A stretch of DNA of 55,119 nt from Seison nebaliae (taxonomy: Eukaryota). The position numbers and the translations under genes are program-made. Each line of letters opens with the position of its first letter. Within the stretch, counting starts at the first letter, position 1. The notes under the pieces were generated by a model. It ran no database searches. It saw only the letters and a program-made list of their open reading frames with translations, and was not told the DNA's origin. Positions 939 through 48,364 of this stretch are shown piece after piece. The stretch covers positions 1 through 55,119 of the forward strand of contig JALJEE010002327.1 in NCBI GenBank assembly GCA_023231475.1. The letters run 5' to 3'.

Positions 939-2414
939 ATGTTAAAAATTTTGTTGAAATTGAATCCGTTAATCAAAAACGAAATCGATTTACAGAAGAA
1001 AACTTATGAAATTTGGACACATCAAAACATATCGAAAGCGAAAGGTTTCACTATGCGAATCATCGAAGATATCGCCAACATGATTAATTTGAAGTTGTTG
1101 AGCGATTCAAAATTCATTACTTATAATTTCTAATTTAATAATAGTTTTATTTTGAATATTACCAACGAATTTGCTTATGGATTAGAAGATGCCACTCACC
1201 ATCATTTAACCGGACTTGCTGGTCAATCTTCTGAAGTTAATTTGTTTATCAAAAGGAAAATGAAGGTGAATTGATTCTAATATGTAGTACGATATTATAG
1301 GTTTACTGAATAGTATTAGAGAAAGGAGAAAATATTTGGAATTTATCAAAATTCTTGAAGTTCATCTCAATTTCAATTACAATGAAAATAATGAAGCACT
1401 TTATTCACCTTTCAATCGATTTATTCGAAATATAAATTACAGAGTATTTATTCTCGCTTTCTTCTTATCCATCTTGTCCATCATATTACTCTATATCTTA
1501 AATGATAAATGTTTAACAATCCATAAAGTTAACCAAAATGAAGGATGCATTTGTGAAACGAAGAAATCTCTGACAGAAATACGAAAGAAATGGATATTAA
1601 TATTCGGCAATTTCCGTTTAAAATTCTTATTAGAATTATATTTTCATGAAAAAATCTTTCTCAGGAAATATAAATATAAAATTAAATATAGTTTGGAAAA
1701 TATTTCAAATTTCTTGGTGGTTCGGAGCCATCATTTTCTCATCACAAGTCATCGCTCTATTTATCAGTATTATAACAAAATTACAACATACCGATTTGAC
1801 TGTACAACAAATATTTGACGACAATATCAATTTTCTGGTTAACATCAATTCCACAACATCAGCCATATTAAGGGTTTACAAACTTTTCTTACATAAAACT
1901 TATTAAACATAAAACGTTTTTTATAGAATTTTGTTTCGTCTCAAAGAATTATCGAAGTGGATGACGTGCTTCAACATACTCATCGGTTGGAGAAAGGAAA
2001 GTTTGTGATCGCTTCATTCGGAGACTATTCCACTTTCTTAAAAAACCGATATTGCAATATAAAAGAAGCAACATATCAACTGTTTTTTCCAGCAGTCTTA
2101 GGCTTAGCAATGAGAAAGAATCATCCTTTAATCGACCGAATGAGATACAAGTCATAAATTATATTATGACATAATTTAACTTTTGTTTTTTCAGTGTGAG
2201 AATGTTAGAGGAATCAGGTACATTAAAACATTATCTGAGCACTGAGAAACCTTATTCGAAGACAACCAAATGTACCAACAAGAAAGGAAGGAATATGATA
2301 TTTTTCAGTCAATTGAAAAATTTCTTCATTTTCTTTTGTTGCCTCGACTTCATTTTGCTTCTTTATCATTCATTTACATATCTCTTGTTAAAGATTAGAA
2401 ATAAACAATGTTAA
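939..2414 (+). CDS. Divergent ionotropic receptor (IR/iGluR-like), copy A, 6 exons, ~408 aa
   Basis: Introns 1094-1144, 1236-1287, 1616-1664, 1874-1926 and 2151-2194 give an open 409-codon frame. It has an M1-like hydrophobic stretch, M3-like ISWWFGAIIFSSQVIALFISIIT, S2-like GLAMRKNHPLIDRM..RMLEESGTLKHY and a C-terminal TM segment. The start codon is uncertain. Confidence 0.65.
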
Positions 2415-2880
2415 CTAAAAATTTTTCTTTCAAAATCTTTATGTTCTATCGAATAAATCGTTCGAGGTAAAAAAAATATTTTTGAATATATAATATCTAT
2501 AATAATATAATAGAGAAATGAGACCTATAACGTAAAATGACGTTCCATTAATATATCAAAGGAGTTTTAAGGACAAATGTTATGCAGTTTCCGAAATTAA
2601 ACTTATGACGTACATAAAAAAGACCATTATAATGGAGTCTACCGGAACTATTAAAAAAATTACAATAAATTTCGTTACATTAAAACAGTTTAGCTTAAGA
2701 AATATTTCAAAACATCATTCTTTCAATTATACATTAGATAATTACTTCCATGATGTGGCAACATATAAGTCATCGGTATGCTGAAAAAAATGTGACAATT
2801 ATTTTTCGCACAATCTAATATTTCTTGGCATAAAACTTTCGGTTGAACTGAAAATATTCACAAACATTCGTCGGAACTAA

Positions 2881-4370
2881 ATGTTAAGAGTACTACTAAA
2901 ACTTAATCCGTTAATCAAAAGTGAGATCGATATATCTCCAAAAACACATGAAATTTGGACAAATCAAAATATATCGAAAACAAATGGTTTCACTGTTCGA
3001 ATCATTGAAGATATTGCTATGATGCTCCAAACAAAGTTACTTAAAAATAACGTTCATTTGTTCATTCCAAATATAGTTTTATTTTAAATATATCAACTGA
3101 ATTAGCTTATGGATTAGAGGATGTTTCTCATCATCAATTGACCGGAATTTCGGGTAAAGCTTTAGAGGTTTATTGGATTTTTATTTAAATTCTTAATTTT
3201 AATAATTAATGATTAAATTTTATAAAATTAGTATGATATTATTGGACTATTGAACGATATGGAAGAACGAAAAAAATATTTGGATTTTATTAAAGTTCTT
3301 GATGTGGTTTTGAATTTCAATTATAACCAAAAGAATGAACTACTCTATTCTCCATTCAATCAATTTATACAAAGTATAAATTATGAAATATTTATTCTCG
3401 CTTTCTTCTTATCCATTATATCGATCATACTCCTCCATATTATTAACGAGAAATGTTCATCGACGAATAACACGACTTACAATAGAAATCGACGGAAACT
3501 TTGCTTTTCTCAAACAAAGAAATCTCTAACCGAAATTCGGAGAAAATGGATTTTGATATTTGGCAATTTCCGTTAAATTTACGTTTGTTATGAAATTTAT
3601 GTTTTAACGCACAAACTCTTCTCACAGGAAACATAAATATCAAATTGAATACGGTTTGGAAAACATTTCAAATTTCATGGTGGTTCGGAGCCATTGTTTT
3701 CTCGTCGCAAGTCATCGCTCTATTTATTAGTATCATCACCAAATTACAACAAACGGATTTAAGTGCTCAACAGATATTTAATGGAGATATCAATTTTATT
3801 GTGAGTGTCAATTCAACAACTTCGAGGATGTTGAGAGTTTTAATTTGAAATATCATTTTTTTCATTTTGCTCATTAATTAGAATTATGTTTCTAGTAAAA
3901 GAATAATTGAAGTAGATACCATCTTCAATCACGTTCATCGATTGGAGAATGAGAATGTTGTAATTGCATCATTCGGCGATTATTCCACTTATTTAACGAG
4001 TCGATATTGTAATATTAAGAAAACGACTTATGATATGTATGTCCCAACATTTCTCGGATTAGCAATGCGCAACAATCATCCACTGATTAATCATGTGAGA
4101 TATATGTTTCTTTTACAATCGATCTTTCATTAAATTCAATTTCATTATAGAGTAAGAACATTAGACGAAGTAGGTCTCTTGAAACATTATTTCAGAACAG
4201 AGAAATCGTATACCAAAATCGAGAATTGTGCAAATAAAAAGGGAATGAATATGATTTTTTTTAGTCAACTCAAAAACTTCTTCCTCTTCTTTTGTTGTGT
4301 CGATTTCTTTTTTATATTTTATCATATTCTCGGATATGTTTTATTGAAATTGAGAAATAAACAATGTTGA
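2881..4370 (+). CDS. Divergent ionotropic receptor (IR/iGluR-like), copy B, 6 exons, ~412 aa; tandem paralog of copy A
   Basis: Introns 3036-3076, 3168-3231, 3572-3627, 3837-3881 and 4106-4150 sit at the same protein positions as in copy A and give an open 413-codon frame with the same motifs. Confidence 0.65.
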
Positions 4371-4600: not shown

Positions 4601-7060
4601 ATGAATACCGCTCCTATTAATGCTACAGAAGAACAACATGAACGTTTAGCGCAGAATGAATATGCGAAATTTTTGGATGATGTCTCATCCGACGGAAAAT
4701 ATACGGAGAAGATAAAGAAGATGTATGATGATGACGAGCATCGATTAATTGTTGATTTGAATGATTTAAGGAAGCGATGTCCGGAACGTGTGCAAAATTT
4801 ATTGGGAAAAGATTTGACATTCGAAGAGATGCGCGCAATTCAGCATGCACTCTTCGATGTGTTAACGTCGTTAATGGGCTCGAAAGAGAATCGTGAACAA
4901 TTGTCGATTTTGGATTATTTCGTCGGATTTTGTGGTAGTTTGGGCTCGAATCATCTCACTCCACGAACATTGATGTCATCTCATATTGGATCATTGTGTT
5001 GTGTGGAAGGAATAGTGACGAGATGTTCTATGGTCAAATGTAAAGTGGTAAAGAGTGTGCATTATTGTGAAAAGACGAAACAAGTGATCGAACAACGATA
5101 TAAAGATATTACAAGTTATGACACATATACATCTAATGCATATTATCCTACGAAAGACGAACATGGTAATCTTTTAGAAACTGAATATGGTCTTTGTAAA
5201 TTTAAAGATCATCGAACATTCTCCATTCAGGAATTACCAGAGAAAGCTCCCGCTGGTCAAATGCCACGACAAGTAGATGTAATTGCTGATTATGATTTGG
5301 TTGAATTATGTCAACCAGGAAATCGTGTTCAAATTATCGGAATTTATCGATGTCTCCCATCCAAACAGAATGGATATACTTCTGCTTCTTTTCGCACCAC
5401 ATTAATCTCTAATAACATCATAAATGTGGAGAAGAAAAATGAAGACATCCAATTCTCCGATGAAGATACTCAACATATTAAACAATATGCCAAATCGAAT
5501 ATTGACACATTTACGGAATTGGCGGAGTCGTTAGCCCCATCAATTTATGGTCATGAATTGATTAAAAAAGCTTTGCTTTGTATGTTGGTTGGTGGAGTGG
5601 AGAAACGATTAGATAACGGTTCTCGATTACGTGGTGATATTAACATCATGCTCATCGGTGATCCAAGTGTAGCTAAATCGCAACTTTTACGATTTGTTAT
5701 GAGAGTTGCTCCGCGTGCAATTAATACCACTGGACGTGGTACTACTGGTGTGGGATTAACAGCAGCTGTTACTCAAGATCATGAAACAGGAGAACGACGA
5801 TTAGAAGCTGGTGCCATGGTTCTGGGAGATCGTGGAGTAGTTTGTATCGATGAATTTGATAAAATGTCTGATATCGATCGAACAGCTGTTCATGAAGTGA
5901 TGGAACAAGGTCGAGTATCCATATCGAAAGCAGGAATTACTGCACAATTAAATGCACGATGTTCCGTTTTAGCAGCAGCTAATCCAGTTTATGGTCGATA
6001 TGATGAATCAAAAACACCAGTAGAAAATATCGGATTACAAGATTCTTTATTATCTCGATTCGATCTCATTTTCATTCTATTAGATAGTGTTGATCGGAAT
6101 AATGATTCCGTTCTTTGTGATCATGTCGTCCGAACCCATTGTTATCGATCAGCTAATCAATCAGACGGACAACCTGAACCATTTGCAAATATCGATTCAA
6201 TTCTATGTATAACAGCTGAAAATGAAGAAAATGAAGCGAATTCAACTCAACGAACTCGACGGAAAAATCAATGGAAATTAACAGATGTTTATGATCAGAC
6301 GAAAGATTTCCGTTCGGTTCGAAATAAAAAAAAATATCTTAAATTCGATTTCATCAGGAAATACATCCAATATGCTAAACGGATCGAACCGACAATTACG
6401 AAAGAATGTGCCAGTCGTTTAGCGGAAGAATATACGGAAATGAGAAATAATCCCAATTCCATTAATGACGTCCTTAATGATGGGAGTACTCAACATAAAA
6501 CTCAACCGATTACTGCGAGAACGATGGAGACATTAATTCGATTATCTTCGGCACATGCCAAATGTCGTTTGTCGAATAAGGTGACTGAAGATGACGCCGA
6601 AGTCGCCATTCAACTCGTTCATTTTTGTCACTTCAAAAAAGTTTATAAGAAACGGACGAAGAAAGATTCCCTCGATAAATCGCCAGAAGCGCTCGAGAGA
6701 AATTTGAGAAATAATCAATCGAAACGGGAAAAACGTAAACAATCGAATTCAATCGATCAGAATGTCGATGAGGCGGCGAAACGATTGAAAGAAACAAATA
6801 TTTCCTCCAACAAGTTCCATCTTCAAATTTTTCTTATAAAATTCTTATTATAAAATTTCGTTTTTAGAATAATTGTTGGGAAGAAATTCTTGTTGAAATT
6901 GTTTGATGATCGAAACACTCAATCGTTAGATATGGATATCATTCGAGAAGAAATAAAAAAACAAGATGATTTGACCGAAGAGGAAATTATGGAAATTATC
7001 GATGATATGCAAAAGAAGGATATGATGATGATCGCCGAGAACGCTCTCTTCCTCGTCTAA
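4601..7060 (+). CDS. MCM3: DNA replication licensing factor MCM3, 2 exons, ~801 aa
   Basis: MCM3-type Walker A GDPSVAKSQLL, IDEFDK, SLLSRFDL and ITARTMETLIRLS. Intron 6814-6867 joins a C-terminal exon ending IAENALFLV*. Confidence 0.96.
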
Positions 7061-7391: not shown

Positions 7392-9017
7392 TCAATAATT
7401 GTTATGGGATCGATTGTCATAGAAATTTGAAGTTTTATTGTTGTTGTTGTTGTTTGATAGTCGAATGTGATTCGTGTCGTAATTGGAAGAAGAATTTCGA
7501 TGAGAATCATCGATATTGGAATCACTTGAATTGCCACTATCGGAGGTGGTGGTTTGAGGGGTGGTGGATATTGGTTTGAACATATGCTTCATGTTCTGAT
7601 AATACATCATGTCTTTCTCATACGACATATGATCATTATCGATCGATAATCCATCATTATATAAATGATTATTTAAACTCTTCAATGATTCATTCAAATA
7701 ATTCTGGAAAGCAGACAAAGCAGCAACAATAGCTGGTGAACCGAATCCGTGTGTTATTAATGAGAAATGAGTAAGAGGATCTTGAATAGTCGAATCTAAA
7801 ATTGGAGATGATTGAAAATTTCCCAAAGGAGAACGATCCTGATTTAGAAGGTCAGTAAATTCTTTCACTAAACGTCTAAAAGGAATATAATTTTTATTAT
7901 AATGGAGTTTAAAAGAAATGAAACTTTGTTGATAAAATAGAACATTTTCTTTCATTCAAATATTCTTTCAAATGATTTTGTTCATCTGTCGAATTTGATG
8001 GAGATGATGATGATGATGATTGATCGTTGGAACGAAGACTCAAATTCTTCTTCGTTATATAAGACGCACAATATTTGGCGGGGAAATCAGATTCGCAAAC
8101 GTTACCGAAATCTCGAGCTAAATGCAATGCTTCTCCTTCTACCAACGATGTTATGAGTGTGACGTTTGCTGCTTTTCGTCTACCAGCAGGTAATGAAATT
8201 CCAAGTCTCTCCAATTTATGACGTAATAATCGACCACCATTTTTAGATTTAGCTCTAAAAATGAAGAAAGTTGAAAATAGGATAAAAATTTGAATTAAAT
8301 GAAACCGTCTTAACACACCACCCAACAACGAAGCGTTCAAACATTCAGGTGGTGCCAATCGTCGTTGAATTTCACCGATGGTCACTTTATATTTGGATGT
8401 TGAGCTAAGAAGAGATAAACGTCCAGGTACATTGCAAAAAACGGACAACGGATTGAAATTAGTTACATCGGGATGATTCCCAGGATTATCTAATAAAGAG
8501 AATAGAGTCGATTTCTCAGAATCAGCGTCTTCAGTTTCGACAACTTCATCTAATTTGAGCATAGAATTTAATATTCCTAATGAATTAAATTCACATAATG
8601 CCGAATCATTTAATATTTTCGTTTCTTTATATTCTTCTTTAATATTCAACAACTTTCGATCGTTTTCATTCAATTTCCGTTTTTTTGATGAATTCTCATT
8701 ATTCTCATTCGACGATAAATGAGATCGTTTCAACGATTTCTCTTTCTCGGCTGACGACAATCCCGGATTCTTCCACTGATTCTCCACATTCGCATAAGGA
8801 AATGCATTTGAAGAGTCCATACATTGAAAGAATTGGCTATTGGCAACTAGATTTGAAGCGATAGTATCATTATTCATAAGATATTGATGATAATTTTGGA
8901 ATGAAGCCACATCACAAAAATTATAGTAGGTCGCATAAAATGCTTTATTCTGATCATTCTCATCATTTCTTAGAATCGAATTCGAAATTGACGATTGAGT
9001 TTTATCATTCCAAGAAT

Positions 9018-9071
<54 letters not shown>

Positions 9072-10513
9072 GCTGTTGATTTTGATGATCTTCTGATTGT
9101 TGATGATGTTGAATGTTTTGATTATTACAATTAACTTCTTTTAATTGAACGTTCTCGTCATTGAACTCGATCTTCACTTTAGCATTTTCATTGCACGAAT
9201 CGTATGGATTAGAAGGTAAAGGAGTGGACGTACCATTCTTGACAACGTTACTTGTATCCATAACCAATTGAGAATAATCTAAATTATCTTGCTTCGAATA
9301 ATAGTACGGAGATTTCTACAAATTAATAAAGGAGAAAATAATATTTTTGAATATTGTTCGTGAATTAATGGAGAAGTTATTCCATTTCATGGAACCAATA
9401 AGAATAAGAAGAAGAGTTCCGTTTGTTTGTTTAACGAAGTGAGAAGAATAGGAGGAGGAAGGATAAGAATAAGAATAATTGACAAACGAAGAATGCCAGT
9501 GGAAGGTGGAGTTAACGGGAATAAAGAATAAATTCTAAATGAATCGACAAAGTTGAAGCACTCAATTCTGAGTGGATGTTCTTGATGTAATCAAGATGCT
9601 AAGCCTAATGGATTGTGAATGTAATTGAGCTGAATCAATTACTGATTATGGACTCTTGAGATTTTGTGCTTTATCCTCAATTCATCGGGCACATATTGAG
9701 AAGAAGAAAAAGAAGAAGAGATTCTCCTCTCTCAATCACCCAAGAAAAAACGAAAACAATAGACGAATTTATAATTAAATGAACGTTCCCATCAAATAAC
9801 AACAATTTCATTAGGAAATGAATATGTTAAAGAACTGGAAGAAGAAGAAGAGAGCCATGTGTCGAATACTTAAATCTATTTTAATTAAGTTATCACGCTT
9901 CTCCACACTGTCTCATTCTCTTCACTTCGAATTATCTCTAAAATGATTTTCCATTGATTCGTTAGTGGATCAACGATATGCGAGAGAAACTTTTCTTTCC
10001 ATTAACTAATAGAATGAAGTGGAATCGTATCGATTGAGAATGATGGGGAGAAGAGACAAGGAGCGTCAAAATAATCTTCAGATTATCGTCACTGATAATG
10101 AATAGCGGAAGCGAATGTGTCATAATTCGGAAGGGAAAGAATACACTGGAAGAAATTGGTAAAGATCTTTCACAGAATCTACTCGATGAGCCAAACATGA
10201 AAAACGATATTTCGGAGATAGAGAAAAATCGGACAGGTAAGAGAATGCTTAGAGGAATAACAATGTTCTAAAAATAAAACAATCGACTAACATCGAAATT
10301 GGATGGTTCTTGATCGCCAAATATATTCCATTTATTCTTCCGATCTTCATTAGAAAATTGATAATATTTTAATTGATTGTAATACAGATTCTCATACGTC
10401 TTTAATGCCAAAGCGGTTTGTGGCGAGATTGTTGATGTGGTTGATGGTGGTGACGTTGTCGTAGTTGTGGTTGTTAGGCCGACGGCGAATTCGTTGTAAG
10501 TTGTCACTGACAT
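7392..10513 (-). CDS. TFAP2: Transcription factor AP-2, 4 exons, ~681 aa
   Basis: [53 protein letters not shown] and [16 protein letters not shown]. Introns 9316-10291, 8255-8305 and 7876-7924 give an open frame; exon 1 is less certain. Confidence 0.93.
9019..9078 (-). repeat. Coding CAA repeat encoding 20 Gln in AP-2
   Basis: (TTG)18 followed by CTG TTG on the + strand. Confidence 0.95.
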
Positions 10514-17218: not shown

Positions 17219-20200
17219 TTAAGAGACGAAATGTCCCATGTTCAAATCGATTGTGTCGAATTTGCGCGAATTATCTTTCTCATAATCATCCATACTAAAA
17301 TCGATGAAGACCTTTATGTCTTTCGCAGATAATTTTTGATTCGATGAATTCGTTTCATCGATAGGAACAGGTTCATTTTGTTTCTCTTCGAAAACTATCC
17401 AAATTGTCGTTTCGTCTTTCCCTTTCACTTCTTCGTCTCCTTTCCTGATTTTGGGGACGGTTGGTGCCAATTGATCAAAAAAATAAGAATTTTCATCTTC
17501 TAAAATTTCTGTCGTATATTCGGAGGAGCGTTCAGCTTCTTTAGCAATAGCAAATTTCCTATATAAAATTAATTATGAAAATAAATTCCAAAAATAGAAA
17601 CCAGTCGAATTTCTTTGAAAATTTCTTGTCGTATTTCCTTTCCATTCCTTCATTGATGATATGGCGAATATCCGAGTATTTCATAGAGTAAACATCGAAC
17701 GTCGTAATTCCCCAATCAAAACCTGAAAGAAAATTTTCATGAAAAAAAATCATAAAAATGGAAAAAAAACCGTTTTGGGACCATTTGGCCACCAGAATCA
17801 TTAGAGACAGTGATCGATAGATAAGATGTTCATCATAGCTGTCTTTAGACATAGCTAGAATTCGTGCTTTCTTACTCAACAGCGACATCCTAGAAGAGAA
17901 GTGAAAAAAATCATAAAATTTCCATAAAATTTCCATAAAATTTTCATGAAATTCATAAATTAATTTTTTTGAGGTTACACATGTCACCGTGAAAGTATAA
18001 TTGAAATTAAATGAAAATTATTTTTTCTCTTCAAATTAAATTTTAACATTTCTCTCTAATTATTAGAATTGGTTATTATGGAAGAAAAGAATTATTTCGC
18101 TTTAAAACTTCTCCACATTTGATTAGTGAAATAAGAAGAAGAAATATGAGAAATTTCAACCAATTGATCTTACAGTCAACACAACGATCTGTAATAATTT
18201 TCCTTCTTTTTTTCCTTAAAAAATTTTAAATTTTCGTTTTGTCATAAGAGAAAATGGATGGAAAGATGAAAATTATCAACAAACCGTGCGATCATATTTC
18301 CCAAAGTATTGAACGGTGCCGGATAATCGTTTTTAATGAGAACTTTACTTCTCGAATGTTTCTCCACCACCAATTTCGACGGTTTCAATAGAATTGGTTC
18401 GCCATCTACTTGCATAGGAATGTCTAACGCCGTTTCGATAACAAGTCGACTACATTGAGCAATTCGATCACCGTTTCCGCCAATTTTCAATTTGGCTAAT
18501 TGTGAAGTTGTCGCTCCAATCAACTCCAATTTACCGTCGGAGATCGATGGCGTTTCAAATTGATTCGACGTTCCCCATGGTGTCGCTCCACCAGCATATC
18601 TGAGAAAATTAAAATTTTTTGAAAAAATTTCAAAATTCAACCTTGGAATGTTCAATAGAATGAGACAATGATATTTTCCTTTTTTAATTTGATCAGTTTT
18701 GTCAATTCCGTCGATCTAACAATCATATAAGAATAGATGAATTAATCAATTGAATTAAACTTCGATATAAGTGATGAAATTGGTTAAACATTTCCATGTT
18801 TGTCGAACCATATCTTTAAAACCGGCCTAAACAATTAAATATAATAATTTATAATATTATATTAATTTAGAAATTATTAAAAATTTATTTAAACTTCGAA
18901 ATATTTCCAGAAATTATATCCGCGAGATTTATATCGTTGAGGATTGGCTCGACGTCCTTTATCGAAATCTAAAGCAATTGCAGCATCTGCTCCCATTGAG
19001 AAATAATTGTTGAAGACATTTAAAGGAAGATTTGTTTTCCCTTTTCCAGCGGCTTGTTCTAACATCACTCGAGTTCCTTCACTTGGTGGATCGGCTTCAA
19101 TTTGTTTATCTTCTTGAGATATATTTTGAGGGAAATTCACATCGAGAGTTGTTACATCAGTCATCGATCGAGTTTCAACTGATATCGACCATCGATCTAA
19201 TGACGCTTCATTACTACATGCTACATTATTGAGGACGGAATCCAAAGCTTCATCGTCATAAGTTCCACCCCAATTCAATGTCCGTGCCAAATCATTACCA
19301 GTTCCTAATGGCAAGATAGCGACAGGTGGTTGTGGTTGAATGTTGAATTCATCGATTTTTGAGAAAACCCAACCAGCTGTACCATCTCCGCCACAAACGA
19401 GAATTCGAGAATTGGTCAAACAACGATAAAGATTGAGAGCGAATTCTGGTGGATAATCAGTTAAATTGAAGACTTGTCTCGGATTGACGAGATTGTTGAA
19501 TCGTTGAATAATTTTCTTTCCTAAATTTCCTCCACTTTTTGGATTTACAAAAATGATTAATGGACAAGTGACAATAGATGAATCGGTGAGTAATGGTAAA
19601 ATATCGAAGGCATATGTGGAATTAGGAGAATGAGTCGGTTCGAATGAATCTTTCGATAATTTCAAATCAGTCAATACTCTTTTCTCATCGATCGATTTCA
19701 TTGAACGTTGTTGAATGGCAAAATCATTAACACTTTCAATTGATCGTCTTCTCTTACTAATCGCCTCATTATTTGATGATAAAATTTTTGATGATAATTT
19801 TATATCAATTGATGGTGTAGTGGGAGATTTTAGTGTTCGATTCTCGTTATTGTTGATGAGTTGTATGTCTTTCTTCTTCCAATAATCCATTCCTTTCTCT
19901 TTCAAATATCCGATAATATCAGTAAATTTATTATCATCATGAACGGTCGATGATCGATTGACTTTCATGTTAACGTTGGGTGTCGATGATGTGGTGGTAT
20001 TAATGGTGGTGTTTGTTATTTTCGAATTTTGAGTGCTGGGAAATCGATCAAGTATTCTCGCTCTCATCGTCGACGAACGAATTGTTGATCGAATTTTCGG
20101 AAGTTTTTTTGGTGCTATTGTTCGTTTAACGATCCATGATGGTGGTATAGTCACACGATCTAATGACGGGAGAGCTAAACAAATCTTCTCATCGAACGTA

Positions 20201-21709
20201 CTCAAATGAACATTAGGATAAGAGGCAGTGGCTGAGAGTTGATTCTGTTCATTTATCCGACTCGTCGTATTCATTTTTCCTTTCAAAAATTTTATATATT
20301 TCGGATGATTTTTATTTTTTGGCGTCGCCAAATCATAAGGAGATGGAGTGAATGATGTCGGTCCATCTCGAATTTGATCGATTCCCAACGGTGTTCTCAA
20401 CGTTTCATTCAATGTCGTATTTAATGATGATCGTCTTTTATTACTATAAGCTTTCAATGTATTTTCAAAATTTTCAGATGCTTTCTGCAAATCCAATTTC
20501 TTTCTCGTTTCATTGAAACATTTACCTTCGTGATAAACTCTTTGACACCATGTACACACCCACGCCTTCGAATTGATCAACTGGAAAATTTACTAAAATT
20601 AATTTTTCCCCAAAAATCGTTAAAGAATCTTCTCTAAAAGATTTATCTTTTCCATATTTTAAATCATCACCAACATTAGATATGACTAATATATAAATCT
20701 AATAAGTTTTCTAATGGAGAATGTTTGAGGAAGAGAAATAAATGGGAAAGTTCTCTAGCGACTTCTATAAAAGATTTCTTGAGAAATTTTGGATTTTTTT
20801 CTAATTTTTAAAAAACAAAACTATAAAATAATGAAAAAAAAAAAGAATGTTTCATTCAACTTACACATCATTTCCCATCGTGAAATTATAATTTTAAAAA
20901 AAAAATCGACTTAAATGATAAAATATTTTTATTAAATTGAAAAAAGAGGAAGATAAAGACGGAAATAAAGGGAACCTTAAAACAAGCATAACACTTCAGA
21001 TTACGTGGATGTCGAACTCCCCAACAATGATGCGTTCTCTTGGAGATTAAGAAAATTTAATTTAAATTAATATGTAAAATAAAAATTAACATAATTTTCA
21101 CGTCGTTGATGATTTTCGATGAAGGTTTCTTTGCATTCGTACTGTTATTCAACGAGATAATGAAGAAAAATTGGAAAATAATTAGAAAACGAACTTTCTT
21201 CTCGTATTGTTTAATGCATGCAATGTGCACAATAGTTAAACATATTTGACATTCAACTTTTAACATCGATTTTGATATGGAATTTCTGGAAATGGATTTG
21301 GAAGTACGTGGTTCACTGAAACCGTTCGCACATTCACCAGACGAACGGTTTCGATGAAAATTCACTTTCTTCCTGAAGTAGAGTGGACGACAAGCGGACA
21401 GACAACAATGATCACAAAAGCTTTCTTTCTCTTTCCGTTCGACATACAAACATTCGCAATCGTTATCTTTCTTGGATGTTAACTCGTCAATTTCACATAG
21501 TCCATCAACATCTCCTGCACAACAATTCTTCATAGAAGTGGTTGGCAACCAAATGTGTTGACGAGGCGTTGCCGTTACCTTAATGGAAATTAAAGGAGAC
21601 GATATGATAATAATTACGAATGATTACTAACCGTCCAATCGACAATTCGTCTTAATGATGATAAATCGTCATCAATTCGCTTCTTCCTTTTTAATCGTTT
21701 TCCGATCAT
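17219..21709 (-). CDS. DGK: Diacylglycerol kinase, type IV (zeta/iota/rdgA-like), at least 11 exons, ~1098 aa
   Basis: Two C1 domains (VDWT..HIW..; HHCW..CYAC..CTWCQRVYH), PLIIFVNPKSGGN, CGGDGT, LPLGTGNDLAR, FNNYFSMGADA and IPMQVDGEP. Introns: 21579-21631, 21142-21194, 21039-21090, 20581-20975, 18827-18894, 18716-18760, 18600-18641, 17890-18284, 17723-17770, 17559-17601. The 5' end is uncertain. Confidence 0.92.
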
Positions 21710-25840: not shown

Positions 25841-26594
25841 ATGGAACAACATTTCCCTATAAAACTTGTTGCCGTTGGCGATGGTACAGTTGGGAAGACA
25901 TGTATGTTAATCAGTTACACAACAAATACATTTCCTGAAGAATATGTACCGACAGTGTTAGACATTGTTCAATTGATTTGTGCAATCTTCTCTTTTTCAG
26001 TTTCGACAATTACAACGCACATCTACTCGTTGATGGTTCTACCGTCTCACTCGGTTTATGGGACACGGCCGGTCAAGAAGATTACGATCGATTACGTCCA
26101 CTCTCCTATCCCCAAACTGATATATTTCTCATGTTTATTTTTTGATTGAAATTTCAATTATTTCATTGTTCTTTTCCAGGTGTTTCTCCGTTGTTTCACC
26201 ATCATCATTCAATAATATTAATGCGAAATGGCTTCCCGAACTGAAGCATTATTGTCCGAGAACTCCATATATTTTAGTTGGAACAAAAATCGATTTACGT
26301 GACGATAAAGATATCATCAAATCGTTAAATTCCCAAGGTTTATTCTCATTTTATATAACTTAAAATTTAAAATTAAAAAAATTTTTTTTGTTTTAATTAA
26401 TTTCAGATTTATTACCAGTTAGAAAGGAACAAGGAATCAAATTAGCTCAGAAGATTCGAGCATGCAAATATTGTGAGTGTTCAGCACTCACTCAAAATGG
26501 ATTGAAACAAGTATTCGATGAAGCTGTACGTGCCGTTCTCATGCCACGTTATTCGAAAAACGAACGTGTAACAGCTAAATGTAGCTTCCTATAG
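25841..26594 (+). CDS. Mtl: Rho-family GTPase, Mtl/MIG-2 type, 4 exons, 197 aa
   Basis: [60 protein letters not shown] and CAAX box CSFL. Introns 25957-26000, 26133-26179, 26338-26406. Confidence 0.9.
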
Positions 26595-27057: not shown

Positions 27058-30000
27058 TTAGATGAGATAATCTTTTGTTGTATAATGAAGAATTTGTTCG
27101 TTAATTGGCGACGATTGAGATTTGGTCGATGTCGAATTTGTATTGAATATATAACGATCATATGATAATTGTTTAGTTGTCGGTGGTTGAATGTTGATGA
27201 ATATTTTACTTGTTTTTCTTTCTGTTTTATTATTGTTATTGTTGTTGTTGTTATTATTAATATCAGAATCATTGACAGAACTTACACCACTGCTACTTTC
27301 GTCACGATCATTTGACAATTGTCTTAAATTCCTCGAAAGTTTATCAGCTGATGAGAGAACGGATGAAGAGGAAGATGAAGAAGATGATAATGATGAAGAA
27401 TTTATATGATTCTTCGTTTTCATCACCGAATAATTGCCATTATGATGTGTCGAATAATTTTTCATTGGTGGTGGATAAAGTGAAGCGGCAGAATTCTTCG
27501 GATTAATTACAATCGTTTCTTCTTTTCTTTCAATTTGTTTATCTTTCGATTTCGGTTCATTATTCTGAGAGAGGAATTTCGATAAACGATTTTTCGATTT
27601 TCGCCAAATCGAATTGAACGAATTTAATTCATTCGGTAAACTACTCATTGAATGAGATGATATCATATTCTTTTTCGATGGGACAGTCAAGGATGAATTG
27701 CCAATGTCGGATTTCGTTGTTAATGATTGATGTGGTGGTTTGAGTGGACGATGGTTTTTTTCTCGAAAGAATTCAAAGAGAACCATATTAATTTTGGAAT
27801 TAACTAACAATTGTTTACTCAACGTTATCTCGTTCACCACTTTCTGATGAGACCAATTGATGATAGGAATGGAATTAATTGAATATAAAATGTCGTTGGA
27901 TTGGATACCATATTTGGAGAGATATTCGTCGACTTCCACAATTCTCACAGGAAATTCCCCATGTATCGTAAAACCATATTCGATTTGTGTCGTATACTTC
28001 GAATAATGTAACATATCCTTTTTGAATTCGACAAATAATCGATCAGAAAATCGACTTGACGAATTAAATAATTCCATCGGACCTAAATAATCGAAAATAT
28101 CGAACGGTTTATTAATGGTGAGAATATCGGTAGAAATTACATTTAATTCTTCACTTTTCCAGATTGCATGATTCTCTGTTTTTGGAAGTATATTCGGCAC
28201 ATCATATAAATCATGCAGGAAGTTTTCGTTCTCATTATAATCTTTAATTCGTTCACTTAATTGTATCAATTTCTCATTCGTTTCATCGATGAGATGTTGG
28301 AAAGAAATCATATGTTCCAAATCGGGACACAATGTTGTACATGATCTCGACTCATCCAAATATCGTTGAGCTTTCATTAGATGTGCGAACGCTATACTGA
28401 CAGTTCCATAATCGAGGAATGGTAACCATTTCGGATCATCGCGAGGTATTGATTGATGTAACTTCTCCAATAAATATGTCAACGGAAATTGATCCGTATA
28501 ATAAAGTAGAGCTAAAGCAGCATAATAATGAGATAAGCAAGCATAAAAATGACATTTACTTCTAATACAATAACGCCAATATTCCGGTATGATGGAATTG
28601 GAAGATGACGGTGTGACCATCGAAGAAGACAATGTCGAATATTTATTATCCATTAAAGATTTCCTCTCATTCTTTTTGAGTGTATTTGAATTATTTTGAA
28701 TAATATCATTCAATTGAGATTTCATTGAAGGGAAAAACATTTTCGATCTTTCCAATGTCAACGACGACGACGGAGTACTTCGTAACGATGTACATGAAGT
28801 GAATAATTGATGAGTTGACGTTAGATTGGACATGGTGGAAAACCGTTTTTTCTCTCGAACAAATTCTTTCGATGGCAATAAAGAAATTGATGATTTCGAA
28901 TTTTGCATTGTCAGATTTGCCGTTACATGAACTTGTTTGTACATGTCGGAGACTTTGGCTGATTCTTTCGCTTTGCTCACATAATCCCGAATGAATTTCA
29001 TCTTTCTCATCTCCTCTTTACTATTGACGAGACAAGTGTGAGTAAAAACGGCTTCTTGAGCTTGAGCTATCATCAAATTGGTGATAAATTGAAGGAGAGT
29101 CTGATTGAAATCGGTCGATTGATCTTCATTCGATTTATCTGATTTTATCATCTCGAGAATCATGTTGAAAATGGCCGCTGAATTTTCGAAATTATTTTTT
29201 ACTCGTACAAAATCTCCATTCAAAGTTTCTCGAACAGCTATCTGTGAATAGGCTGCAGCTAAATTGAATAATATCGATAATTCTTCTTCGTTAATATCTG
29301 CCGATAAATTCTGATCGCCGTCCAGGAAATTATACCAAATGAAAAAGACATTTTCTTCCTGATTATTATTCGTCAACGACAACGAACGATTCGACGTCAA
29401 TACTGATAAATTCTTCTTTCTTTTCAATGTACTCAATCTCTTGTGTCGGGATGACGACATGGTACAATATCGTTCATTTGTTATCATTTCCACCGGTTTA
29501 GTGGAATATTGGAAAAATCGCTTCTTGATGTTACTAATTTGTTTCCAATATTTCGTTAGAGTTTGTAGAATAAATTGATCCATTTTGTCAGTTCCATTCT
29601 CATTAGGATAACCTGGCCATCCTTCCAATACGTTGTTTGGTGAATATTCAGCGATCATTCTCATTTGCTAAAAAAGTAATTTAAATTGAAAAAATATTTC
29701 AAAATAGAAACCTCTCTCAATTTTCTCAATTTATGAATTAATGGTTCACATTCCGCTTTCTTCCATTTGAAATTTCTTATGATTATATTCTAGAAAATTT
29801 CAATTAGAATTTTAGGAAATTGAAAATTTGGGAAAAAACTTCGATAATTCGATAAATGTTCGTTTTTTCACTTGTATGTTTCATGGTGATTGGAATCATT
29901 GGAACACAATTCTCCATGTCACTAGAATTGTAAGTATTATTAAAAATTAATAATTAAATTTAAGAAAGAATTGGAGAACTTGAATAAATTGAACCATTCC

Positions 30001-30201
30001 GTACCGATAAGTGAATGGTATTCATATTTGAGAATTTTCAAACGAGATTCAGCGAACATCAGTTCTAATTTTGCCGAATTTTTCACTTCTCGATTATTCG
30101 ACGCACTTTCGGGAAAGGAATAAGAGAATTGAAAGAAAGTTGAGAGTTAACCTTATCAAATTGTTTGCACCGTTGATAAATTGGCGAAGGCGGAACATTT
30201 C
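27058..30201 (-). CDS. RHPN: Rhophilin (HR1-BRO1-PDZ); further 5' exon(s) not resolved
   Basis: HR1-like GANNLISASNNREVKNSAKLELMFAESRL, VPMIPITMKHT, BRO1 FIWYNFLDG..SILFNLAAAYSQIA..MIAQAQE and PDZ YGFTIHGEFPVRI. Introns 30106-30151, 29922-29979, 29790-29839, 29668-29711. Confidence 0.85.
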
Positions 30202-30693: not shown

Positions 30694-30715
30694 ACACACA
30701 CACACACACACACAC
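30694..30715. repeat. (CA)n microsatellite
   Basis: About 11 CA units. Confidence 0.9.
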
Positions 30716-35368: not shown

Positions 35369-35412
35369 TTCTATTTTATTTCTAGTAACTTCTTGTGAAA
35401 TTTCGAAACTTG

Positions 35413-37380: not shown

Positions 37381-37729
37381 AGATTTAAGTTTTAATGAAA
37401 ATTTCTTTCTTTTTTTTTCGATAACTTTTCGTTTAAATCAAATAGAAGAATAATTAAATAATTTATGAAATTTAAAAAAAAAACGATAAACAACGATGAT
37501 AATTTTTTCTTTAATCTGATTCTGGAAAGACATCATTTTTTTTTTGAAGGAACAAGAAGAAATATTTGAGAAAAAAAAGAAAACGATCAAATGACTTTGT
37601 TTCTACTTTCAATTTCATTCATTAGTCATCTTTTGCTCGCGTACATGAGAATGTACAGATTGTTGTTGTTGCTGTTGTTGACGATTCTTCTTTCATACCA
37701 GAATTTTTGAAGAATTTAAATTTTGATAA

Positions 37730-39531
<1,802 letters not shown>

Positions 39532-41104: not shown

Positions 41105-42293
41105 TCTACAAAGACTTTGAGGGAAAAGGTCAAATCCGACAATGTACGATAGAAATGTAATTATAAAAATGTCCTTTAAAAATATTTTCTTCAAACTTCT
41201 CCATTTACCAAGCATTCGATCAATCGAATTATCAACATGTACCTAAAAAGAGCTGTAACTATCTCTAACATATTCCATTAGAGAAGATAATGATTATTTT
41301 AAAAAAAATTCGTCTTCAAATAAGAGTCATTTAGAAGAATATAAAGAAAGTTCTCTAATTCTTATGACGTCAAATATTTTTTATTCATCATTTTCATATT
41401 CTAATTTCTTTGGTCAAATTGAACTTGATTGAACGAATAATTTGCCAACGGAAATCGAGAGAATGGAATGATATGCAAATATTTGAGCTCCACAGCTCGC
41501 TCATCTAACTTCATCATGTTAAGATGCAGTTTTTTTGGAAAGCAAATATTTGTAAATTCCATTTGATTCTAATTTATTCCATTCCTCTACGTCTATTCCA
41601 TTGAGCACATAACATCGACAAATATTCAACGTAATTTCTTCTACTTCAAAAAAAATAATTACTTTAAATTTATTCAGTTTTTTTTGAATAATTTTTTCAG
41701 TTTAGTCTTTTAGTTTTCTTGTCCTTCTCACAATAAATTCCAGCATAATATACGTATCATCAATATTTATGTTTTATACGAAATTTCGAAAGAAAACATT
41801 TTCTCTTTCTTTCCTTCGTTTTCTTTTTTTAAAAGCAAATCAGTGTTATTTTAACTATTTACTTCGATTTCATTATATCGATAACTTTATTCTCTTTCAC
41901 TTGCACATCATCTCTTCTAATTTACGAAATTGATGTAACATAATCGAAACAATCGATTGTTTTTGTCTATTTAGTGTATCGCAACTGATTCAATGATAAG
42001 TGACTGTGTAGTAGTTAGTTAGTTGTTCGATAGTAATTTAAAGCTGAGAACAAGTCGTCTGTCGGATATGTGGATAAGTTGTAAAAAGGTGATTAGAATT
42101 ACGTTCACCTTTTAAATGGAAAGCTATATTTAGGAAAATGGAAAAAAGCAAAAAATTCTGTTTTTATTTTACGCAATCATTCTCCATTTTAACTAAATCT
42201 ATTGGAATAACAATTTCCATCATTATTTTTCCGATCATTTTTTGAAAGAGAAATATGAAAATTTTGAATTGTTTATATATAGAGCGTTGAATA

Positions 42294-44221
42294 ATGATCG
42301 ATAATCCGGATAGGATTATTATGGAGGGATTAGAAGATATGAAAGGTGATGAAAGTAATTTAACTGATACTCTAATTCGATCGGACACGAAGAAAATGGC
42401 GAAGAAATCAGGAGGAATTTTCTATCGACTAATTAATCGAAGTTTATTACAATTAACAATAAAGAAATCGAAAGAAGAGAATATAAATCAATTGGCTGTT
42501 AATGAGGAAAGGATAGACAATTTATTAATTACTAGACAAGATATTCGTGTTTATTGGTGGCGATATATCATTCTCATTCTTTTCGCTTCATATTCACTTT
42601 CCAATGCATTTCAATGGATCCAATATTCCATCATCACGAACATCGTCATTCAATTCTACAATGAATCTCTTCCAACATCAACTCTAGCGCAGAATAACGT
42701 CGTCAATTTAACATCTCTCATATACATGGTTCTTTATATTCCCTTGGCAATTCCAGCGACATATATGCTCGATAAATACGGTCTGAGACCGATGGCATTG
42801 ATTGCCACTTTTCTCAATGCTACCGGTGCCATCATCAAAGTAGCGAGTGCACATCCAAATCTCTTTTGGTTATCGATGGTGGGTCAAACTGTCTCCGCGT
42901 CCGCTCAAGCTTTCATTCTTGGTGTACCGGCACGATTAGCTGCTATCTGGTTCTCCTCAAACGAATTAGCAACTGCCACATCAGTTGGTGTATTTGGAAA
43001 TCAATTAGGTGTCGCTATCGGTTTCGCTATACCTCCCTTAATTGCCGTTGCTAAAGGTGATGCATTACAATCTAATCTCTTCCAACTCTACATGATAGTC
43101 GCCATAATTTGTACGTCATTATTCATTCTCGTTTTCATCGGTTAGTCTCTTAATTATTCGTTTATAATTTAAATTTATTTCAATTTTGAAGCAATGGAAA
43201 CAAAACCACAAAGTCCACCATCAAAAGCTGAATCGAATGCACCAGACGTGAAACATGAATGGAAACATTATTTGAATCGAATAAAGAATTTGGGAAGAAA
43301 TAAAAATTTCGTTTTATTAGCAATATCTTATGGATTGAGTACGGGTGCATATTATGCCATTGGAACTTTATTAAATCCAATTCTTAATACTTATTTTCCT
43401 GTTCGTTTTCTTCATTTTCAAACTTTTTAAAATTACATTTCATTCAGAGTGAAGAAATAGCAATTGGTCATTGTGGTTTGATCTTGATCACATCTGGTCT
43501 ACTTGGCGCCATTATCTGCGGCTTCGTTTTAGATAAAACTCGGAAATATAAGTTAATTCCATCAATTTGTTTATGTACGATAATATTCCATTTATCTCTT
43601 CATTCTTTTTAGAATCGTCACAGTAATCATATATTTCCTATGTCTCGTGTCATTGGTGGGATTTTGTGCGACTCCTTATCTCAAAAATATTTATTATATG
43701 TATTATATCTCATTCTTTTTAGGGTTCTCTTTTCAAATTTTTCTTTTTATTCTTTAAACAATTTTATGATATTCTATAGATTTTTTATGACCGGATATTT
43801 ACCAGTTGGATTTGATTTAGCTGCGGAAATAACTTACCCGGAATCGGAAGCAATTTCATCTGCCATTCTCAATATTGCTTCTCAAGTTATTTATTTTATT
43901 CAAACATTATTATATATTATTTATTAATATCTTTTTTTTTTTTCAAATAATTTACTATCAAATAATATTTTTGGAATTTTTAGATATTTGGTATTATATT
44001 TACAATAATTCACACACAAATGCTACAGGAATTGGGACCGTTATATGGAAATATATTTCTCATTTGTGCAATCGTTCTCGGTCTCGTCCTAACAAGTCTC
44101 ATCTCTTCTTATCCTTATCTCATATTATCTTCTCAATATTTCAGTTCTGATAAAAGAAGATCTCAGAAGAACTCATATAACTTTAATGAGGAATAATGAC
44201 GAGGTGGCAGTTGCTAATTAA
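42294..44221 (+). CDS. FLVCR: FLVCR-family MFS transporter (SLC49), 7 exons, ~521 aa
   Basis: [71 protein letters not shown] and IKEDLRR. Introns 43141-43191, 43401-43447, 43552-43612, 43724-43779, 43886-43983, 44096-44144. Confidence 0.93.
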
Positions 44222-45280
44222 TGAAAATAAGTTTATTATAGTTTTCGAGAGAGGAAGAATTTATTTTGAAAAACTTAATTTTTTCTTTCTAGCAAAATCT
44301 GATACATATTTTTTTTAAGGATAAATCTGATTTAAGTTTTACAATTTTAGTTGAGACAATTCTCCACATTTGGACTTGGATGAGTCTCTTATTTATTATT
44401 TTTCATTCTTATTATATGATAAATTGATTTTCTTATTTATTATCGAAATAAATTTTCACATAAATTTCAATCAGTTCAATTCATATCTTTCCCCCTTCGA
44501 CATTTTGAGACGTGAACGGATTAATAGTTGGTAATTGAAGGGAATATGATTAATATTTAATTTGGAGATATTAGTAAAGAAATAAAATAGAATGACTTTC
44601 TCGCATCGATAATCTGTTCCTGTGTTGGTTGGTTGGTCAATGAAGCGAATCTTTATCGAATAATTATGGTGGAGGTGCAAGCAGACGTGAAGTTGACCTA
44701 AAAACCTCCTTGCTATATTTCATTTGACGATGATTCTAATTGTTCGGTTGATCGCATAGAAATATTTATTTCTTTATTGTTAGACGAATATCTTCTCGTA
44801 CTATCTCGTTACTTTCTTCATAGAAAGAAACGATCTGTTTGGAAGCAGGAAGTCATATTTTTCTATGTAAAGACAAAGTTGGGAGAACAATCGTGCATGT
44901 TGTTCATTTAAGCTAATTCCTTTCCTATCTCAACTCGTGTCATCGATTTATCTGTAGCAAGTAATCGGGTAAAAGATATGAAGAGATATGGAGGAACGAA
45001 AAGGAAAATATTAATAAATTAAATTTTCATCGTGTCAATTGTTAGTCGAAGAAGAACATTTACGAGAAGTTAAGAGTCGGATAATGAAGGGAAATATTTA
45101 AATTTGAGTGAAATTTGTTTGTGGTTCAATAGTTGATCTTTATTTTCTCAAACATCTCATCGATTGTTCAAATAGGAAAATTGGTTTTCTATTCACCTGT
45201 ACTATATATACAATTTAACAGAAATCTTTTTCATAACAAATATTCTTTTCGTTTCATCCAACAAATTTTCCTTTAGGAAA

Positions 45281-48200
45281 ATGAGCGAAACTAATTTCAA
45301 TTTGGAGACGTTACATCATGTTCGATTATCTCGACCTCATTCCTTGTTGCTTCCATACACTGAGGATTATTCCACTTACCAATATGCCAATAACGACAAC
45401 AATGGCGGTCGATTGAGGAACTTTGTGAAATATACGTCTTATAATAATGAGAACTTCAATCTACCTCCAACCAGAGCATATGGAACGAATAATGAAAATC
45501 CGAAAATCTATAATCTTCTAAATTATCCGATAAGGGGGAAAAACGAATATGGGAGAGCATCGCCGATGAATATCCGTCATCAGCAATTACCTCCACAAAT
45601 ATCAACTCCGACAAATTTCAATTTGATACGACGAAAAGACGATTTTCCACGATTATCTGCAGAAAACGGTAAATTTATTTCATACAATTCATTTCGAATG
45701 AATTCCTTCGATTATAATTCCAATGATTGTTATCAATTTAAATTTATTCCAAATTCAATGAATATTCTCGAGGAATCAGAAGATGACATAATAATGAATA
45801 ATGAGAAAAATGAAATTATGATGAATAATAAGACGAATAATAGTAATTCGAATATTAATCGAATTTCTTTATTGAATAAATTGAACAAAACTATCATCAA
45901 TAACAACAACAATAATAATAATAACATTTTACAAAAAACTTATACATTTCAACCATCAAATAATCAGAATAATGTAGTGAAGAAACCTCAATTGAAATTA
46001 CAACAGAATAAAATGAATGAAAAAGATTTGAAAATAACGAGGAAGAAGAGTCGACATCGAGATAGAAAATCGACGGAGAAAACTAAAAGTAAATTATCGT
46101 CCACTCAACATCTGATTATTCGTACAAATATTCCGAATGGACCATGTAATTTAAAGAAGAAAAATTCCCTTCTTACACGTTACCAATCATTACATCCTCA
46201 GACGATTAGGAAACCGTCTTTTAAGGAATTGTCTAACGAACCGCCAATAGTAAATAATTCGAATTCCACCACCGCTTCATCCAATGAAGGTGATGAAGTT
46301 TTCTATACGAAAGAAACGATCGAACCGAATAATGATAAAGTATCAAGTTCTTATGAGATGAATGTGGTGGAAGGGAAAACGAAGAAATTATCGACAGATT
46401 CCGGAATCTCAACTGAAGATAATGGATCGTATGCAACTCATCATAAGTTGGAAAGTGTAACGGAAGCTTCCGAATCGTTTAATGAGAATTCATTACCTCA
46501 TTCACCACAAATCACTGAGAGTGACTCAACGAAAATTAATCAGAAAGACGAAAGATTATTGAATGGTGAAGAGAAGAAGAAAGAAACAAGTCCATCGAGT
46601 TATAAGAAGTCGGATTTGAATCAATTACTTTGTCAGTTGTTGGCAAATGAAAATGCAGCAAAACCACCACAAACCGGTAAGAATTGTTCGAGAGTGTTAC
46701 GTATAACTGAATTATTCATGAATAATTCGAATGATGACAAATCGGATAAAACCATCGCTAATGATAATACTCTCTCTTCCAGTAATGTATTTCTTAAACA
46801 AAAAGATATAAATTTGACAGATGAAGATGATAAAAGAAATCGAAATACCAATCAAATTATTAATGATACAAGTCGATTATCCAAAATGAGCAAACAACAT
46901 TTTGAAAATATTTCTACCAACAACAACAACAATAATTCGCAATTGAAAAAATCGATGACTGATGATTTGTGTGAGAAGAAACCGGAAAGAATAAGTAATC
47001 GCATGATCGATACGAGTAAGATGGTTGCTTTCGATGATAATTGTATTGAGATTGATCGACATGTTGCCGCTTATCGTGCACAAAAGAAACGAGCGAAACA
47101 ATTTAACACGATGCCATCAAACATCAGGAAAGCTCTCAAATGTCAAATGAAACAAGAGAATAAGAATACTTTAATGAAACAGATTACTACATCGCCCGCC
47201 AATTTATTCAAAGAAAATAATAAAAATTCATTTTGCAAACAATTATTTAATCAACAACAACAACAACAACAACCGCATCGAATGATGGAAGATAAACAGA
47301 ATGACCGATTTTTATTAGCACGACCATTGAAGCCGTTAATGTTTCAAGTGGCCGTTAACGGTATCGGAAAACATCGAAGTGCCGAACAAGGTTTACCCAA
47401 AAAGAATATTTGTCTAATTCGTGGAAATTTTGGTGATGATTCCGGTATATATATTCAAACGAATTCACATCTTTTTATCGGTTCCAATTCTCTTTTCTTA
47501 AAATCGAGACTATATTTTCTCTTTAGCTTTAGCTGACGGGGCGGGAGGTAATCGACAATTTGGAATTAATCCCAAATCTTTCTCCAACGCATTAGTTAAA
47601 GAATTACAGAACACAATTGAAAAGAACGATATTGCACCAGACAATTTAACAAAGATCGTTCATCGTGCATTACACGCCGTTGAAAAGCAAGGAATTTGTG
47701 GTTTATATTTTTCTCTATATAATTTTATAAAACTTTTTAAAAATTTTTTTTCTCATAAAAAATTTCATTTTCCCTTTTCCCTTCTATAGGAAGTAGTACA
47801 TTGTGTGTGATTGTGGTGGATAAGATGCGTCGACGATTAAGAGCATTAAATATTGGCGATTCCGGTTTCGCTCTTGTACGCAATAACCGAATTATATGTA
47901 AATCTGAATCTACTTTACACGCCGGATATCCCAAACAACTCTATTGTTTAAATGAAAAATTTGACGGCGTTTCCTTCATCGACGAACAGTTATTTCATTA
48001 AACATTTATCTTATTCTAATTTCGTTTCCAGAACGATTCTTGATGATTCTCATATGGTAACAACAAAAATCAATTCTAACGATTTCATTCTATTAAGCTC
48101 CGACGGTTTATTCGACGTTCTAAATATTGATGAGATCGAACGTTGTATATCAAATGATCAAGTTATTTTCTATTTCGTTTTATAATTCGTTTATAATTTC

Positions 48201-48364
48201 CTCAGACATCTGCTACGGTAGCGAAGACATTGGTAAATCGTGCAGTGCAAAGTTAAATTTTACATATTTCAATTTCCAATCTATTTGTCATTTATCTATT
48301 TAAAGAATATCGAAAAAAATCTCACGACGACATTTTGACGATAGTGGCGAAGGCAGTTTGCTAA
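45281..48364 (+). CDS. PPTC7/PTC7-type PP2C phosphatase with a ~680-aa low-complexity N-terminal extension, 6 exons, ~935 aa
   Basis: GNFGDDS, ALADGAGG, GSSTLC, NIGDSGF, SSDGLFD and HDDIL. Introns 47481-47526, 47701-47789, 47989-48031, 48162-48205, 48252-48305. Confidence 0.85.

Follow-up and report, generated by a model that had tools for sequence, protein, structure and literature searches.

GTT donor sites in the spliceosomal introns of Seison nebaliae: evidence from one contig and a predicted change in U1 small nuclear RNA

The spliceosomal introns on contig JALJEE010002327.1 of the minute marine rotifer Seison nebaliae (Seisonidea; GenBank assembly GCA_023231475.1) are ordinary short GT-AG introns in which the third base is almost always T. 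This contig, analyzed at its full length of 55,119 nucleotides and hereafter called the window (31% guanine plus cytosine, GC), carries ten spliced genes with 49 modelled introns, 47 of which begin with GTT and two with GTC. Together with one further donor placed by RNA (18160) these make 50 donors, at which position +3 is T in 48, C in 2 and A or G in none. A purine at +3 is the most constant feature of animal donors after GT itself. All Seison donors described here come from this one contig, and the 24 placed by RNA come from five genes; extended by inference from the window, the pattern very probably holds across the genome. An original prediction, made from the sequence alone, had reported the same 49 introns, with GTC at 2151 and 44096 and no GTA or GTG. 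When the ten genes were rebuilt, with frames checked past the last junction, the same counts were obtained gene by gene, all ten frames were open, and the seven donor coordinates quoted in these genes carried the predicted bases.

The most direct evidence comes from Trinity transcripts mapped to the assembly by GMAP (supplement of PMC8351084), for which at least 49 rows are listed on the window contig, nearly all from minus-strand genes; one 3-base gap in these rows was left out and not counted as an intron. Among the transcript rows listed are 25 distinct introns with 24 distinct donors, and all are GTT...AG (25/25 and 24/24), so that the RNA junctions, which the prediction had named as its own check, include no GTA or GTG donor. 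They are distributed over the genes for diacylglycerol kinase (DGK, 11 donors), SEC61A (7), a rhophilin-like protein (4), AP-2 (1) and a Rac-like GTPase (1). Sliding each junction through all equivalent placements left a single GT/GC-AG solution. Of the modelled introns, 23 coincide with RNA-derived junctions, and the transcript rows add donor 18160. In SEC61A, exon and intron lengths derived from the protein recur at the same coordinates in one transcript row. On the other side, introns 18760, 17601 and 26133 stay unspliced in some isoform rows, 26133 being retained in the sole transcript row that covers it. An unused GTA or GTG lies within 30 bases at 11 of the 23 RNA-supported modelled introns, in four cases in the same phase and with an open frame. 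T follows 39% of the 610 non-donor GT dinucleotides on the sense strand of the same genes, and against this background the probability of GTT at 24 of 24 donors is 1.9e-10 and at 48 or more of 50 is 1.7e-17. Between positions 35000 and 49945 the window shows 0 differences and 0 gaps relative to one contig from each of two DNA runs, and donors there are thus not assembly errors. The ten genes are listed below with their donors.

1094..2194, plus strand: IR-A (ionotropic-receptor-like), five introns (1094, 1236, 1616 and 1874 GTT; 2151 GTC), from paralogue alignment without gaps at the junctions.
3036..4150, plus strand: IR-B, five introns, all GTT (3036, 3168, 3572, 3837, 4106), from paralogue alignment and open frame.
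6814..6867, plus strand: MCM3, single intron GTTCCA...TAG, from exact mapping of NCBI protein SNEBB_003953 (long exon match 100%).
7876..10291, minus strand: AP-2, three introns, all GTT (10291 from RNA; 8305 from frame and comparison with human AP-2; 7924 from frame and Pfam pieces).
17559..21631, minus strand: DGK (Pfam DAGK_cat, DAGK_acc), ten introns, with a further, alternative donor (18160) and one alternative acceptor; each of the 11 donors is GTT and RNA-mapped.
25957..26406, plus strand: Rac/Mtl-like GTPase, three introns, all GTT (25957 from RNA; 26133 and 26338 from frame).
29668..30151, minus strand: rhophilin-like gene (BRO1, weak PDZ; Pfam), four introns, all GTT (30151, 29979, 29839, 29711), RNA-mapped.
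38017..39524, minus strand: SEC61A (NCBI protein SNEBB_003961, also a 100% match), seven introns, all GTT (39524, 39326, 39069, 38912, 38548, 38297, 38081), RNA-mapped.
43141..44144, plus strand: FLVCR, six introns (43141, 43401, 43552, 43724 and 43886 GTT; 44096 GTC), from alignment of 12 foreign homologues blind to +3.
47481..48305, plus strand: PP2C/PPTC7-like gene, five introns, all GTT (47481, 47701, 47989, 48162, 48252), from frame.

By class of support, 23 introns are placed by RNA, 1 by an NCBI protein (MCM3), 6 by alignment blind to +3 (FLVCR), 10 by paralogue alignment (IR-A and IR-B) and 9 by frame. For two of the frame-placed introns, human proteins of known structure give the exact position: 26133 falls within the codon for Rac1 residue 80, with flanking exons that correspond to Rac1 residues 37-79 and 81-130, and 8305 forms an exact 17-residue insertion relative to human AP-2. 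The spliced aligner used for FLVCR and SEC61A accepts GT/GC-AG and is blind to +3. With four foreign SEC61A proteins, 23 of its 24 calls agreed with RNA; the single miss was a GTG three codons upstream of the GTT shown by RNA. In FLVCR, for which no Seison protein was found among the best 120 matches, four junctions were supported by 11-12 of the 12 homologues, 43552 was called as a donor by 12 of 12, and six called the GTC junction at 44096, the remaining six alignments having stopped short of it; one homologue picked a GTT four bases further on and one skipped an exon.

IR-A and IR-B share five intron positions, aligned without gaps. The first four IR-A junctions are present in P0361, the only database protein found for this gene, and the same protein reads through the GTC intron at 2151 and then stops. 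At the corresponding place IR-B has a GTT intron, and conservation between the paralogues runs for about 70 further residues. The IR-A match to Lig_chan-Glu_bd is weak, below the Pfam cut-off. Neither GTC donor (2151, 44096) has a junction in the transcript rows listed. A textbook GTGAGT (3801-3806, plus strand), 12 codons before the IR-B donor 3837 and in phase with it, appears unused, judging by the paralogue alignment.

For 19 of the 26 introns placed by means other than RNA, there is no same-phase, frame-preserving GTA or GTG alternative within 12 codons. Seven have such an alternative, four of which are settled by homology; the remaining three (47481, 47701 and 48252, all in the PP2C-like gene) are placed by frame, which by itself does not exclude the alternative, and 47701 additionally by conservation. 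In this gene a PDB search with one exon gave chance matches only, one exon has no Pfam match, and the name PPTC7 is that of the original prediction; about 690 low-complexity residues rich in N, K and S, encoded in one exon, precede its domain (45281-48360, plus strand). The prediction had also put forward four less certain introns (35230, 41095, 54116 and 53923). These do begin with GTT on the proposed strand, but both transcript rows over 41095 are unspliced up to 41098.

The prediction had argued that AT-richness does not explain the pattern, on the ground that A is about as common as T. The conclusion stands and the premise does not, as the introns are 33% A and 51% T. At +4, A (20/50) and T (19/50) are equally frequent, and A is therefore not simply absent from intron starts. 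Composition was further addressed with a control from a related lineage, consisting of five metagenome loci (L001-L005) with a bdelloid MCM3 alignment, which were the relatives among 594 candidate stretches and represent one gene. Their spliced MCM3 is 88-98% identical to that of Adineta and Rotaria and 34-62% identical to that of Seison. These loci have 26-31% GC and introns of 46-59 bases, and their 28 donors comprise 23 GTA and 5 GTT, or 9 GTA and 2 GTT at 11 distinct positions (Fisher p=8e-7 for positions versus the 24/24 GTT of Seison RNA donors). AT-rich short rotifer introns are thus not GTT by default. G(+5) is likewise far more frequent in the control (10/11 in L001) than in Seison (8/50, p=5e-6). 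GTT is tolerated in bdelloid-like MCM3 and may represent a starting point for the Seison change. The control GTT donors (L001:837, L001:1377, L002:717, L002:1253, L005:1306) all combine an A-rich exon end (AAG or AAA) with G(+5), as if compensating. Seison MCM3 itself (4601-6813, plus strand) is without all 11 introns of the first 574 bdelloid-like codons and has one intron near its end, a possible case of gene-wise intron loss.

Several of the Seison introns appear to be old. In SEC61A, 44 of 115 foreign proteins lack residues 260-324/325, a stretch that coincides exactly with the exon bounded by Seison introns 5 and 6; individual foreign records have deletions that end at 47, 117 and 154, the places of introns 2-4. 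For FLVCR, 1 of 120 foreign proteins (from Adineta steineri) lacks exactly Seison exon 4. These exon-lacking records are annotated isoforms, and their agreement with Seison exon boundaries suggests that the introns are old and that their donors were likely converted in place. A divergent genome is present in both DNA runs as low-depth contigs (2-4x, between about one quarter and one eighth of the main depth), about 80-85% identical to window genes in 35000-50400 and differing mostly at every third base. One such contig aligns across the GTT at 47701 and then carries 52 different bases opposite 84 in the window; the alignment starts again at the AG and stops five bases inside the GTT donor 47989. 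Others align across the GTT at 43886 in FLVCR. These boundaries are local-alignment ends, and the evidence is correspondingly soft. Two lineages have been described within Seison nebaliae (PMC8351084). In the FLVCR 5' leader a further GTT intron is likely (42160-42284, plus strand), where the alignment of a divergent contig breaks off at 42169 and starts again with the AG at 42281. The RNA junctions, the bdelloid-like control, the old intron positions and the GTT of the divergent second genome all bear out the prediction that this lineage differs in its 5' splice-site preference.

Several of the splice signals are those of U2-type introns. GT...AG ends are found in 49 of 49 models and 25 of 25 RNA introns, the 25 RNA junctions show removal from messenger RNA, and the 3' end is pyrimidine-rich with YAG (T in 31-35 of 49 at -7 to -5; TAG 27, CAG 15, AAG 7); the purine at +3 that is typical of U2-type introns occurs in 0 of 50. 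U12-type introns have a fixed RTATCCT 5' end, a motif that the donors lack, with A at +3 in 0 of 50. Median intron length is about 50 nucleotides, and the ten spliced genes in these 55 kilobases hold 49 introns, about five each. Four YURAY-like branch patterns were not enriched over shuffles in the 49 introns. On the exon side, -2 is A in 31 of 50 donors and -1 is A in 21 and G in 19. C is depleted at +3, where it makes up 2 of 50 versus 19% of intronic pyrimidines (p=0.002). G(+5), at 8/50 versus 4% in the background, is enriched over the intron background (8/48, p=6e-4), and the eight donors that carry it are GTTAGT (four), GTTCGT (two), GTTTGT (one) and GTTAGA (one), with T(+6) in 7 and A(+4) in 5. 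Positions +4 and +6 to +8 follow intron composition, and information is confined to -2, -1, +1 to +3 and, weakly, +5. When GTT donors were compared with 240 decoy GTT sites, separation was best in the standard register (p=6e-8) and less pronounced with a shift of +1 (p=0.008). There was no see-saw between G(-1) and G(+5) (p=0.46); A(-2) and G(+5) weakly avoid each other (p=0.04).

The window encodes one spliceosomal RNA, a small nuclear RNA (snRNA) of the major spliceosome, and an Rfam search over its 55 kilobases found no U1, U2, U5 or U6.

52716..52856, minus strand: U4 snRNA gene (Rfam RF00015, 119.6 bits, full length).

Its stem I, T-loop and stem III stretch, which pairs with U6, follows the Rfam consensus. 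As judged from its sequence, this conventional U4 implies normal U6 flanks on either side of the ACAGA box and is silent on the box itself. In the stem II arm two bases depart from that consensus; they could be mismatches, or U6 could have changed to match.

The most likely cause of the GTT donors, to which we give an even chance, is a predicted U1 snRNA with A in place of U at the nucleotide that faces +3. Standard U1 presents U (pseudouridine) opposite +3, accepting A or G. An A at this position would take only U, tolerate C poorly and clash with purines, which would produce the observed 48:2:0 pattern. With little pairing at +4 to +6, an unbroken helix from -2 to +3 would be needed, and +3 would become nearly as fixed as GT. 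The ideal donor would be GUUAGU, read in the standard register by a predicted U1 arm ACUAAC. After hand-over, a wobble pair could form between U(+3) and G44 of an unchanged U6, as has been suggested in Entamoeba, and U5 loop 1 would hold the A-rich end of the exon. The depletion of C at +3 speaks more for an A partner than for U6 G44, which would pair best with C. In humans +3 interacts weakly with U6 G44 (PMC11732430), which suggests that U1 is the RNA that normally reads +3, and Entamoeba provides a precedent that a U1 change with normal U6 can happen. That the G(+5) preference has been lost points to changes at more than one contact.

Several points weigh against a changed U1. Across all donors A(+4) and T(+6) are not enriched over the intron background, so that U1 pairing beyond +3 is weak, and it is mainly exon-side bases, also read by U5, that discriminate in the standard register. 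Thecamonas, Mamiellales and 69 of 69 yeasts have kept a standard U1 despite atypical donors, although the changes there are at +4. The branch-site consensus resembles UACUAAC, which a predicted U1 arm ending in ...UACUAAC would copy, at a possible cost. Finally, we infer the mechanism from donors on a single contig, with those placed by RNA drawn from five genes.

Selection of U(+3) could instead occur under a standard U1, at the hand-over to U6 and U5, through an essential G44-U wobble, a changed ACAGA box (G44 to A) or changed SNRNP27, METTL16 or PRP8 contacts. We regard this as possible but doubtful. Donor changes at +4 in yeasts accompany the loss of METTL16 and SNRNP27K and not a change in U1 (PMC11732430), SNRP-27 mutants of C. 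elegans alter +3 preference (PMC11347140), and the loss in Seison of most of the G(+5) preference seen in the control indicates that the U6 step is somehow changed. An unchanged G44, however, should favour C over U, and C is depleted; moreover, a standard U1 leaves most donors with three or four pairs only, and the U4 T-loop/stem III stretch that positions the ACAGA box is unchanged. A protein might also read the donor with little or no U1 pairing, for instance an altered U1C, LUC7 or U-rich-binding TIA1-like factor, with short T-rich introns defined across the intron. Such recognition would suit introns that are short and 51% T, carry hardly any information past +3 and show no enrichment of a branch motif; we consider it unlikely because U-rich binding would not single out +3 while A occupies +4 in 20 of 50 donors.

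Least probable of all is a standard U1 bound one base further in, in a shifted or +2/+3 bulge register, such that U(+3) acts as the invariant U(+2). This arrangement is documented in humans (PMC4856993) and would directly explain the invariance of U(+3), and both the frequent A(-1) (21/50) and the small positive decoy score (p=0.008) are in its favour. It also predicts G(+6), purine(+4) and A(+5), which are seen in 0/48, 22/48 (p=0.13) and 19/48 (p=0.20), and the G(+5) of the standard register is enriched instead. Only slightly less remote is the view that no machinery changed and that GTT is a local feature, an effect of base composition or a legacy of an intron-generating element with such ends. 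The data are from one contig, T is the commonest intronic base, and bdelloid-like loci use GTT at 2 of 11 positions; set against this are the departure from the local GT background (p about 2e-10), the predominance of GTA (23/28) in the AT-rich control, the agreement of ten unrelated genes on both strands, and the divergent second genome, which keeps GTT where the intron interior changed. The coincidence of SEC61A and FLVCR introns with exon boundaries in other animals also argues against it, and an origin from introner-like elements is disfavoured on the same ground, as these positions are not lineage-specific.

The window holds other features besides the spliced genes. Intron-free frames encode an FtsJ-like methyltransferase (24735-25586, plus strand; Pfam) and a core-2/I-branching glycosyltransferase (35389-37377, plus strand; Pfam), and a MULE transposase fragment lies between AP-2 and DGK (12694-13560, minus strand; Pfam). 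Long open frames without a clear Pfam family occur on the minus strand at 15276-16925, 40314-40964, 48538-49563 and 53239-53886, the first three overlapped by transcript rows. Repeats with raised depth are found near 49770-50400, and two transfer RNA genes were identified (Rfam), at 50439-50510 (plus strand) and nearby on the minus strand. In the DGK gene the transcript map records alternative splicing at 17890-18284 (minus strand), where an exon of 54 bases (18161-18214) behaves as a cassette, an alternative donor is used and some introns are retained.

No published description of Seison donors, or of a GTT-dominant animal, was found in a search outside which most subscription journals lay. 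In the accessible part of the genome paper (PMC8351084) the word stem 'splic' occurs once, in another context, and the accessible part of a survey of 30 species including 17 animals (PMC10599564) contains no dominant-GTT case. As far as the literature search reached, dominant GTT is new for animals, with Entamoeba as the precedent. Structures leave +3 loosely explained, with a weak U6 G44 contact (PMC11732430). An intron-rich animal with the opposite +3 base is a natural suppressor experiment, in which U1, U6 and the 5'-site proteins would show which component enforces +3. A more tentative idea is that this animal changed the third letter of its splice code in tens of thousands of introns that it had inherited, neither losing introns first nor undergoing an Entamoeba-like U1 change, by way of an altered ACAGA box in U6 or of a protein that recognizes U(+3); if true, this route would be a form of 5' splice-site recognition not described in any spliceosome. 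In practical terms, gene finders trained on GTR will misjudge the Seison genome.

Seison donors share with the standard metazoan AG/GURAG signal (classes AG//GU and //GURAG; PMC11732430) the GT-AG ends, the pyrimidine-rich 3' end, A(-2), a purine at -1 and a major U4, and they resemble the exon-strong class, but +3 is a purine in 0 of 50 and G(+5) is weak. Bdelloid-like MCM3 has the same low GC, short introns and occasional GTT, whereas 9 of its 11 positions are GTA and G(+5) is the rule. Human donors read in shifted or bulged U1 registers (PMC4856993) also begin with GUU; such sites are rare, and the rest of their consensus is found one base further in, unlike in Seison, where G(+6) occurs in 0 of 48. 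Saccharomycotina, Thecamonas, Mamiellales and Mastigamoeba, with a pyrimidine at +4, likewise changed one donor position across a lineage, although the position differs, U1 is mostly standard, and in yeasts METTL16 and SNRNP27K are lost.

The closest parallel is Entamoeba, in which donors are GUUUGU(U) (96.9-98.5% GUUUGN) and are matched by a co-evolved U1 arm AACAAAC, with a normal U6 ACAGA (Roy and Bowser, bioRxiv 10.1101/2022.06.08.495308). Both have U at +3 in nearly all of their GT-AG introns (48/50 in Seison). Entamoeba, however, is an intron-poor protist with a rigid donor of 6-7 bases (U+4, G+5, U+6), while Seison is an animal that, on this contig, is not intron-poor, fixes only +3 and uses GTTTGT at 1 of 50 donors. 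Among the cases that Roy and Bowser list, altered donors go together with massive loss of introns in all but Mastigamoeba (bioRxiv 10.1101/2022.06.08.495308). In contrast, the old introns of Seison seem to have been converted one by one, which bears on how splice signals and the machinery that reads them co-evolve.

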